From: Clostridia bacterium
GTDB lineage: Bacteria; Bacillota; Clostridia; CAKSNL01; HGM11501
Reading direction: 5' to 3'
Assembly: GCA_045545475.1 (NCBI GenBank)
Contig: JAZQAZ010000047.1
Span: forward strand, 55,269 to 119,268
Length of the DNA stretch: 64,000 nt
The translations under genes were made by a program, and so were the position numbers. This document shows positions 1,881-10,470 of this stretch, one piece after another (within the stretch, counting starts at the first letter, position 1; the number at the start of each line of letters is the position of its first letter). Below the pieces are notes generated by a model. The model did not search any database and had not been told where the DNA came from. It saw only the letters and a list, made by a program, of their open reading frames with translations.

Positions 1881-1954
1881 GGCGCCATGGCCAAGTGGTA
1901 AGGCAAAGGTCTGCAACACCTATATCCCCAGTTCGAGTCTGGGTGGCGCCTCCA
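1881..1954 (+). tRNA. tRNA-Cys(GCA)
   Basis: Anticodon loop CTGCAAC, GTTCGA T-loop, TCCA end (U73). Confidence 0.96.
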
Positions 1955-1955
1955 G

Positions 1956-1988
1956 AAAAAAGACTTGTCAGTTGACAAGTCTTTTTTT
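1956..1988 (+). terminator. tRNA operon terminator
   Basis: AAAAAAGACTTGTCA-GT-TGACAAGTCTTTTTT inverted repeat with T tract. Confidence 0.85.
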
Positions 1989-2164
1989 AATGAAATTTGC
2001 CTGCGTCAAGTGAAATACGCTACGCGTATGAAATATTGCTTCGCAATGTGAAATATGCCTTGCGGCATATGAAAAGGCAAATTTTATTTCACATTTTTCT
2101 GTAAGAAAAATATTTCATAATCCGTAGGGTTATTTCATATCAACGAAGTTGATATTTCATTAAA
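1986..2164. repeat. Dyad-symmetric ladder of nested TGAAAT/ATTTCA repeats with intervening mini-hairpins
   Basis: TGAAAT at 1991, 2011, 2029, 2049; ATTTCA at 2086, 2112, 2132, 2154; 11-bp terminal inverted repeat TTTAATGAAAT/ATTTCATTAAA; seven small hairpins. Confidence 0.85.
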
Positions 2165-2166
2165 TA

Positions 2167-2195
2167 TTTACATATTGCTAATTCTATGTTAGAAT
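2167..2195 (+). promoter_or_regulatory. Putative sigma-A promoter of the four-helix-bundle gene
   Basis: TTTACA-17bp-TAGAAT with TG extension; RBS GAGGTG at 2203-2208. Confidence 0.55.
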
Positions 2196-2215: not shown

Positions 2216-2563
2216 ATGAAGGAAAACAAACTTATAGATTTATCTACGGATTTAGCAGTTAAAATTATAAAACTCTGTGAAACGATAAAAGGACATTATT
2301 CACTTGTAAATCAGTTAGAAAGAAGTTCTACATCAATCGGGGCAAACATTCACGAAGCTAACTATGCTCACGGAAAGAACGATTTTATTGCAAAATTACA
2401 GATTGCTTTGAAAGAATGTTATGAAACAGAATATTGGCTCGAGCTTTTTGTAAAGTCAGAAATTTTAGATAGAGAAACTGCGAAAAATTTATATAATCAA
2501 TGTGGTACAATTCGAAAAATGTTGATTTCTTCAATCAACACTGCAAAAAAGAACAGTAATTAG
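2216..2563 (+). CDS. Four-helix-bundle protein (TIGR02436 / 23S rRNA IVP family; Avd-like fold)
   Basis: Family motifs NQLERSSTSIGANIHEA and DFIAKLQIALKECYETEYWLELF. Confidence 0.9.
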   Translation: MKENKLIDLSTDLAVKIIKLCETIKGHYSLVNQLERSSTSIGANIHEANYAHGKNDFIAKLQIALKECYETEYWLELFVKSEILDRETAKNLYNQCGTIRKMLISSINTAKKNSN

Positions 2564-10192: not shown

Positions 10193-10470
10193 ACAAACGC
10201 AGTGATGCGGAATAGTAAGTAAGGACTTCACCTTTCAAGAGAAATGCCGGTTGGTGCAAGGCATAAGGGAAAATTTACTGAACTCGCCGCGGAGCGGTTG
10301 CCGTGAAATGTAAAGAGTAATGGCAAACGGGAACTCCCGTTACAGAGTTAAGATGTGTTGGCATCTAAGGGCATCCTTTGGGATGAAAAAGAGTGGTACC
10401 GCGGAAATGTTTAAATTTTTACGTTTTCGTCTCTTTGGAAAAGCAAAGAGACGGAAACGTTTTTTTATTG
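10193..10470 (+). ncRNA. T-box riboswitch, leucine specifier (CTC)
   Basis: Stem I AGTA/AGAGA/GGTGCAA motifs; GAA-CTC specifier at 10283-10285; T-box AAGAGTGGTACCGCG at 10389-10403; terminator CGTCTCTTTG/CAAAGAGACG plus T tract. Confidence 0.92.

Follow-up and report, generated by a model that had tools for sequence, protein, structure and literature searches.

A two-part Gut-1 (RF01706) locus between tRNA-Cys and a PF05635 gene in a Clostridia bacterium

The array and the Gut-1 motif

The array described here occupies positions 1986-2164 of a 64,000 nt stretch of DNA (the window, to which all coordinates refer unless another contig is named) from the genome of a Clostridia bacterium (GenBank assembly GCA_045545475.1, contig JAZQAZ010000047.1, here C47). 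It is built of short boxes and small hairpins set about a dyad centre, and it lies between a tRNA-Cys gene and a gene of the PF05635 family. The region is shown here to be one complete locus of the Rfam motif Gut-1 (RF01706) in its natural two-part form. The features from the tRNA gene to the downstream gene are as follows.

1881-1954 (+): tRNA-Cys, end of a Val-Asp-Phe-Gly-Cys cluster and upstream anchor of the array (ARAGORN; Rfam tRNA, 61.4 bits)
1956-1987 (+): hairpin between an A-tract and a T-tract, terminator-like both ways (inverted repeat with 15 nt arms, 100%)
1989-2088 (+): left arm, the Gut-1 domain, modelled as helix P1 around three hairpins with TGAAAT linkers (Rfam RF01706; covariation)
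2086-2164 (+): right arm, four ATTTCA boxes with three hairpins between them (loops GTA, GTA and GAA)
2167-2195 (+): sigma-70-like promoter for the downstream gene, TTTACA-17-TAGAAT with TG ahead of the -10 hexamer (consensus scan)
2216-2563 (+): PF05635/TIGR02436 four-helix-bundle protein (23S rRNA intervening-sequence protein, Avd-like), 115 aa

The left arm carries TGAAAT boxes at 1991-1996, 2011-2016, 2029-2034 and 2049-2054, and TGAAAA at 2070-2075; the ATTTCA boxes of the right arm are at 2086-2091, 2112-2117, 2132-2137 and 2154-2159. Between the former stand the hairpins ACGC-TAC-GCGT (2017-2027), ATTGC-TTC-GCAAT (2035-2047) and ATGCC-TTGC-GGCAT (2055-2068), and between the latter ATTTTTCT-GTA-AGAAAAAT (2093-2111), AATCC-GTA-GGGTT (2119-2131, with one T·G) and ATCAAC-GAA-GTTGAT (2139-2153). 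The hairpin at 1956-1987 lies directly 3' of tRNA-Cys and just before the first box; a simple terminator scan of the window did not call it, and an A/T-flanked counterpart precedes arrays at further loci.

A first-pass annotation, made from the sequence alone, had described TGAAAT boxes opposite ATTTCA boxes with unrelated hairpins between them over 1986-2164, and this is confirmed. A repeat search returned its nested inverted arms at 1986-1996/2154-2164, 2027-2037/2109-2119 and 2045-2055/2085-2095, each of 11 nt and 100%, and in the remaining arm, 2010-2017/2131-2138, seven of eight positions pair by eye. The hairpins and loops are all as it gave them, except that the first left hairpin, H1 (1997-2009, TTGCC-TGC-GTCAA), is degenerate, with a C·T mismatch, and competes with P1. 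The promoter it placed at 2167 is the one found by the consensus scan. Folded as DNA (+), RNA (+) or RNA (-), positions 1980-2170 give z scores of -6.6, -5.2 and -6.1 against dinucleotide shuffles, none of 200 shuffles folding as well in any of the three settings.

Using cmscan with Rfam 15, Gut-1 was matched at 2008-2080 (+) with 66.3 bits and at 2081-2162 (-) with 50.3 bits, the gathering score being 50 bits. The RF01706 model consists of three variable-stem hairpins joined by UGAAAU linkers, which is the box-plus-hairpin unit of the first-pass annotation, and the window alignment contains it. That annotation had presented the array as a new class unless it matched a described family; since both arms match RF01706 at or above the gathering score, the claim of novelty is refuted, and the array is a new locus of a catalogued, unexplained motif. 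Weinberg et al. (2010, Genome Biol 11:R31) rated Gut-1 a likely noncoding RNA of unknown function, seen in human gut sequences only. In full-text literature the Gut-1 RNA motif was found in that paper and in a 2026 structure-prediction benchmark only; the paired form, the gene context and a PF05635 partner were not met with in the literature searched, though the supplement of the 2010 paper may touch on them.

Homologous copies, for which the first-pass annotation had proposed a search, are present in the window's genome and in many relatives. In the former there are 14 Gut-1 matches, and at four loci (contigs C47, C48, C4 and C31) a match on the + strand is followed within ~20 nt by one on the minus strand, the right arms outside the window scoring 42-50.7 bits. 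Matches were found in 13 of the 14 genomes of the family and in 27 of 151 sampled genomes of the class (E ≤ 1e-6). Units were counted with a detector of box-flanked box-plus-hairpin units; among 130 fetched or own loci so parsed, 92 arrays have at least three units and enough upstream sequence, and 67 of these possess both arms. The motif usually takes the form of a convergent pair. As had been claimed, the stems differ under a constant architecture: 584 distinct hairpins were collected at homologous positions.

Identical array sequence occurs at the end of C48 (54511-54611) and at the start of C31 (1-217) of the window's genome; because the two contig ends share it, the assembly evidently breaks inside an array. 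Contig ends carry many Gut-1 matches in other genomes as well.

Neighbouring genes and box variants

The protein encoded downstream of the array matches Pfam PF05635 (E=4.2e-27) and NCBIfam TIGR02436 (E=2.2e-30), and its nearest solved structure is PDB 2RLD (E=1.7e-23), an entry with five chains; it had no match among the PADLOC defence models. In the window's genome an array stands directly 5' of the PF05635 gene in four of four cases (C18, C24, C47 and C48). Upstream regions of 19 further PF05635 genes of the family, read as printed, contain 15 clear arrays and three variant dyads, one gene having none. When species-representative genomes were searched with the PF05635 alignment, 80 loci came up, for the most part in metagenome-assembled genomes of Clostridia; counts were made on the 74 whose upstream sequence reaches 250 nt or more. 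At least three box-plus-hairpin units lie upstream of the PF05635 open reading frame (ORF) at 73 of these 74 loci, compared to 8 of 75 control regions downstream of the ORF, and at least four units at 70 of 74 compared to 1 of 75. The orientation is constant, the left arm being turned towards the stable-RNA gene and the right arm towards the ORF.

A same-strand tRNA or transfer-messenger RNA (tmRNA) gene lies within 420 nt upstream at 48 of the 74 PF05635 loci, with many tRNA identities represented, and within 100 nt for 32 of the 92 arrays; the tmRNA was confirmed by Rfam at two loci. The array is usually found 3' of a tRNA or tmRNA terminator. On its other side the window array ends 3 nt before the -35 hexamer. 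Related loci repeatedly have a promoter that overlaps the last box or comes directly behind it, and in many relatives TTGAAA-17-TGnTATAAT adjoins this box or overlaps with it. A ribosome-binding site follows directly behind the last box at about 10 of 72 loci, and at loci with GCTAAAT-type boxes a promoter lies immediately upstream of the array; in both situations the array must be transcribed. Within the window array a sigma-70-like consensus scan found no internal promoters for divergent RNAs. Contigs from two metatranscriptome runs of one study cover the window tRNAs at 90% likeness and, at low depth, positions 1960-2061 and the ORF part 2237-2481 (14 differences); these contigs are strandless and probably those of relatives, and positions they leave uncovered carry no information.

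Not all arrays use the same box. In the window's genome the C18 and C24 arrays retain the architecture with GCTAAAT/ATTTAGC and (A)ATGATG/CATCAT, respectively, and C20 has GTTATAT/ATATCAC. Further types in the class are GTGAAGT/ACTTCAC, GCGATAT/ATATCGC, ATGATAT/ATATCAT and GATGAAATC/GATTTCATC. While box types differ between loci, the two arms of one locus always bear complementary versions of one box. Identity to the window protein is 61-80% for proteins beside TGAAAT-type arrays and 39-57% for those beside other box types; that box type follows protein similarity would fit specific recognition and plain co-inheritance alike.

Variant dyads of AT-rich sequence were seen at 2840-2970 of C42 in the window's genome and at loci L022, L032 and L363, between tRNA terminators and PF05635 genes. 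Their boxes (e.g. TATTCAC/GTGAATA) almost adjoin one another, hairpin spacers being few or absent, and the modules appear swapped, not nested, in order.

Elsewhere in the phylum PF05635 was found in 30 of 151 sampled genomes, and no Gut-1-type arrays were found in this sample. The detector reported at least three units at 5 of 27 PF05635 loci outside the Clostridia group, which by eye are plain tandem repeats and no box-plus-hairpin arrays. A 6-mer in at least four copies within ~255 nt upstream of the ORF occurs at 9 of the 27 loci, against 5 of 78 control windows, and short lineage-specific repeats often reach the start codon by eye (CAGGAG ×18, CTAGTA ×9, GATGTTR ×4). Such repeats stand directly 5' of the ORF at L343, L335, L345, L338, L340, L346, L347 and L362, the last being a dyad of tandem boxes.

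At L346 and L347 the PF05635 ORF lies inside the 23S rRNA gene, these being true intervening sequences (IVS), within which GGCATCA ×3 and GATGTTR ×4 are found. At L352 and L355, in two genomes of one genus, it lies inside the gene for class A RNase P RNA, where the Rfam match spans 775 nt for a model of 367 nt; this insert is an RNase P RNA intervening sequence, analogous to the 23S rRNA cases. Repeats inside rRNA and RNase P RNA genes can act as RNA only.

Helix P1, folding strand and signs of mobility

Helix P1 joins 1989-2002 with 2075-2088, that is, the first box and the 5' half of the first hairpin pair with the dyad centre, and it was also recovered as an inverted repeat in the window. 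Across loci there are 65 distinct P1 helices of 8-17 bp. For the alignment, 49 of the 80 loci passed a threshold of at least seven Watson-Crick P1 pairs, the short L179, L193 and L196 were dropped and the window was added. RNAalifold, run on an unfitted MAFFT alignment of these 47 left arms, predicted P1 as the only helix. In the pair count 98.2% of the cells are paired, a percentage inflated by the preselection for P1, and 105 cells are changed on both sides, a covariation that the preselection does not inflate. None of 500 shuffles reached this covariation, and slid controls were 29-63% paired. Outside the boxes, wobbles in P1 on the + strand are T·G in six cases and A·C in one.

The left arm is accordingly modelled as a tRNA-sized closed junction, in which P1 would close three variable hairpins with the boxes as single-stranded linkers, and the right arm as an open row of three hairpins set apart by ATTTCA boxes. 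Because P1 is topologically incompatible with nested rungs between the arms, a ladder is disfavoured. RNA folds of the window give -52.1 kcal/mol for the arm-to-arm form and -49.3 kcal/mol for the P1-closed form; with energies so nearly equal, and with H1 and P1 in competition, a two-state element is conceivable. Loop-loop (kissing) complementarity between the arms is at chance (37 versus 34.1 ± 4.1).

The strand on which each arm folds can be judged from loops, energies and mismatches. The strand-specific loops pointed out in the first-pass annotation recur among the 584 distinct hairpins, the strand that reads ATTTCA having GNA in 160 cases and TNC in five; GNRA tetraloops on this strand number 87. 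Loops are closed by C-G in 151 of 179 hairpins of the left arm and in 103 of 146 of the right. The box-adjacent closing 'AT-stem-GT', which is T·G on the TGAAAT strand, occurs in 79 left units and is mirrored in 68 right units. Right hairpins are more stable on the + strand with RNA parameters (113 versus 25) and with DNA parameters (121 versus 18). In the mismatch test every single internal mismatch was treated alike, and a second set was independent and oriented by gene. On the + strand of the right arm G·T and A·C were counted 8 and 0 times in the first set and 5 and 1 times in the independent one, together 13 versus 1, which contradicts the minus-strand call of Rfam; the A·C clash in the Rfam minus-strand alignment of the window right arm is a T·G wobble on the + strand. 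These sequence comparisons strongly favour folding of the right arm on the + strand, against the weak Rfam minus-strand matches, so that Rfam may have assigned one half of each pair to the wrong strand. In the left arm P1 and the box-adjacent wobbles favour the + strand, and loops and stem mismatches the minus strand; its folding strand is ambiguous.

Mobility of the array element is not established. By blastn, positions 1955-2215 had no match in phage and plasmid collections. A three-box pattern scan of viral contigs yielded 80 loci (80 of at least 118 stretches), none with hairpins between the boxes; in the positive control the corresponding figure was 24 of 50 pattern-bearing Gut-1 loci. 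In an empty-site comparison the downstream genes had no DNA match in 13 other genomes of the family, save for one 52 nt stretch. Neither the single RVT_1 match of the window's genome (C10:141866-142417, in an open frame of 337 aa) nor the single weak Y1 match (C30:129759-130073) is beside an array or a PF05635 gene.

Two candidate signs of mobility were discarded. GCATCT follows arrays or the gene in the window's genome, and as a general boundary it fails, being present after the stop codon at one of 78 related loci. Direct copies of the tRNA 3' end lie downstream of arrays at only 7 of 40 loci, where they go with a different insert of ~200 nt. This insert was seen at C4:20305-20545 of the window's genome and at L105, L109, L113, L085, L075, L077 and L118. 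It sits between a complete tRNA with terminator and a 17-24 nt direct copy (to CCA) of the 3' end of that tRNA, after which come a second terminator and then the array. An inverted copy of the tRNA T arm forms its start, and its core is conserved; at the gathering score it matched no Rfam family, and at E ≤ 1 there were chance hairpin matches only. It looks like a small element targeting tRNA 3' ends.

Downstream of the PF05635 gene the window has fragments related to tRNA-Cys:

2584-2600: near copy of the tRNA-Cys 3' end with A-tract
2615-2625: inverted copy of the tRNA-Cys T arm
2688-2702: exact direct copy of tRNA-Cys, 15 nt

Near them is a 51 nt imperfect direct repeat (2612-2662 and 2719-2769). 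Fragments and repeat together suggest earlier insertions at tRNA-Cys, and whether the debris at 2584-2702 belongs to the array element is uncertain. Elsewhere the window contains a T-box leader at 10193-10437 (+, 134.9 bits).

Interpretation and known systems

The reading which we tentatively prefer, giving it something short of an even chance, is that the array would be a structured RNA leader of the + strand and the partner of the PF05635 protein. We lean to RNA because of the fixed orientation, the asymmetric P1 domain, the loci at which the array must be transcribed and the rRNA and RNase P context of related PF05635 genes. Read-through out of the stable-RNA operon would supply the + strand RNA, with a nearby upstream promoter doing so at some loci, and this RNA would serve the protein as a partner in cis. 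The lineage-specific repeated boxes, displayed between stable hairpins, would be putative binding sites for an oligomeric PF05635 protein, and the RNA may alternate between an arm-to-arm fold and one closed by P1. As a small selfish unit in or behind stable-RNA genes, array plus gene would resemble a 23S rRNA IVS in behaviour. A more far-reaching proposal, which we hold to be doubtful, makes the boxes recognition sites of Avd-like PF05635 proteins, the array a two-state platform and the whole a selfish ribonucleoprotein module that colonises stable-RNA genes with co-evolved repeats; its guises would be 23S rRNA intervening sequences, RNase P RNA insertions and units flanking tRNA and tmRNA genes on the 3' side. 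If true, this would give a function to the orphan Gut-1 motif and to the large uncharacterised PF05635 family outside the diversity-generating retroelements (DGRs).

Several observations weigh against an RNA leader. A terminator-like hairpin precedes the array, and in the window and most related loci a strong promoter follows it, which places the array outside the gene's own mRNA there. Many arrays have no adjacent PF05635 gene, and the agreement of box type with protein clade could equally be simple co-inheritance. The + strand of the left arm has 2 G·T and 10 A·C mismatches in the first set and 3 and 7 in the independent one, together A·C 17 versus G·T 5 (combined Fisher p = 8e-5 for the left/right asymmetry, uncorrected for relatedness). 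A manual re-count of the printed lists puts about half of these A·C cases in H1, the hairpin replaced by P1. In stability, too, left hairpins prefer the minus strand (107 versus 39 with RNA parameters, 119 versus 23 with DNA parameters). C-GNA-G triloops are a signature of very stable DNA mini-hairpins, and their presence, with the 160:5 excess of GNA over TNC on the outward-reading strands, weighs for DNA.

The rival that draws on these last points, and that the first-pass annotation had preferred to RNA, is that the array acts as single-stranded DNA, whose arms would fold as hairpins on the strand carrying ATTTCA and GNA (right arm +, left arm minus) when exposed in replication, transcription or transfer, and would serve as a substrate for recombination, priming or mobility. 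It ranks behind the + strand RNA reading, and we think it unlikely. Loop excess and C-G loop closure fit it, as do the DNA-parameter stabilities and a mismatch asymmetry mirrored about the dyad centre, although on manual reading the left-arm asymmetry is weaker once the H1 cases are removed. The lack of an internal sigma-70-like promoter agrees with it too. Arrays occur behind many different tRNAs and tmRNA and break contigs, and at L034 (G009 C10:49000-50700) there are three tandem copies with a 230 bp period. In each L034 copy a fragment of the tRNA-Cys 3' end is accompanied by a terminator hairpin, a full dyad array and two more hairpins. The window's genome has its one weak match to a Y1 (IS200/RAYT-like) transposase, yet no recombinase or HUH gene is adjacent and the Y1-like gene on C30 lacks flanking arrays. 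The scarcity of tRNA-end direct repeats, tied as they are to the other insert, and the lack of phage, plasmid and viral counterparts also speak against single-stranded DNA, as do the fixed orientation to both neighbours, the asymmetry of the P1 domain, and the related PF05635 modules inside rRNA and RNase P RNA genes. A duplex DNA operator, with boxes bound by a regulator (possibly the PF05635 protein itself) that controls the promoter at 2167-2195, is quite improbable. The closeness of the array to the -35 hexamer, the meeting of last box and promoter in many relatives, and the agreement of box type with protein clade would suit it. The first-pass annotation had offered a phased protein-binding array as its alternative; the boxes are spaced 16-25 nt apart in the left arm and 18-28 nt in the right, so that the array is not helically phased. 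Moreover, spacers that vary but are always palindromic, and a covarying P1, would be meaningless for duplex binding, many arrays have no gene or promoter behind them, and the IVS and RNase P contexts offer no promoter to control.

Among purely RNA alternatives, two convergent small RNAs, the left arm from the + strand and the right arm from the minus strand, would follow from Rfam, whose covariance model matches in those orientations. The T·G closings next to the boxes on the TGAAAT strand support them, and so does the rating of the motif as a likely noncoding RNA by Weinberg et al. (2010). We give this explanation little probability: the right-arm wobbles point to the + strand, the right-arm scores are near or under the cut-off, GNRA complements, not UNCG, make up the tetraloops of the TGAAAT strand, and the consensus scan found no minus-strand promoter. 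The first-pass annotation had itself described a nested box-to-box ladder, for which it suggested stacked four-way junctions or a recombination or mobility substrate in DNA. As RNA, this would be one long imperfect hairpin, an RNase III-type stem parting the tRNA transcript from the downstream mRNA. Unconstrained minimum-energy folds do join the arms, the boxes of the two arms are complementary in all box types seen, and IVS elements, which PMC4990558 describes as selfish, are excised by RNase III. The ladder clashes, however, with the strongly covarying P1 between first box region and dyad centre; its rungs are just 7-11 bp, in the GTKNTAT variant some of the degenerate left boxes fail to pair with the right boxes opposite, and the loops show the chance-level complementarity given above. 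We regard it as very unlikely.

Compared with the Rfam entry, in which Gut-1 has stood since 2010 without function, organism or partner, the arrays have the same three hairpins and UGAAAU linkers, and the relatives are gut Clostridia, so that the motif is now placed in named lineages. They differ in forming an inverted pair with the extra closing helix P1, in having sister arrays of the same architecture with other box sequences, and in a right arm whose folding strand appears opposite to the Rfam call. Their neighbours are constant too: upstream a gene for a stable RNA, and downstream an Avd-like PF05635 gene whose product is a candidate protein partner.

The integron attC site, a single imperfect palindrome with R''/L''-L'/R' core sites beside an integron integrase and cassettes, is unlike the rows of mini-hairpins with 7 nt boxes in the window. 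Repetitive extragenic palindromic (REP) sequences and bacterial interspersed mosaic elements (BIMEs) are multi-copy extragenic hairpins of alternating orientation, found after terminators and with a short conserved motif beside the hairpin. The arrays resemble them in all these respects; REP stems, however, are conserved, whereas here 584 distinct stems were found and the boxes alone are kept, and no arrays flank the Y1-like gene on C30 as a candidate REP-associated tyrosine transposase (RAYT). With TRAP and the trp leader, or CsrA and CsrB, an oligomeric protein reads many copies of a short single-stranded motif on a leader or decoy RNA. The comparison concerns a way of working, there being no homology; here stable hairpins form the spacers, the boxes are followed by a complementary set, and the protein binding is putative.

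The target of a DGR requires a DNA hairpin or cruciform close by, with a GNRA-like loop. At the arrays no reverse transcriptase is adjacent, the sole RVT_1 match being on C10 and the PF05635 genes on C18, C24, C47 and C48. PF05635 is likened to the DGR protein Avd in PMC10053308. The 23S rRNA IVS share with the window a PF05635 family ORF, a small unit within a stable-RNA transcription unit, and dyad or repeat structure 5' of the ORF. The window unit differs in lying behind a tRNA terminator and not inside helix 25 or 45 of the 23S rRNA (no rRNA match was found within the window), in having both dyad halves upstream of the ORF with hairpin spacers between the boxes, and in the gene having its own promoter. 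The findings link three scattered facts, namely the IVS proteins of rRNA genes, Avd in retroelements and an orphan RNA motif.

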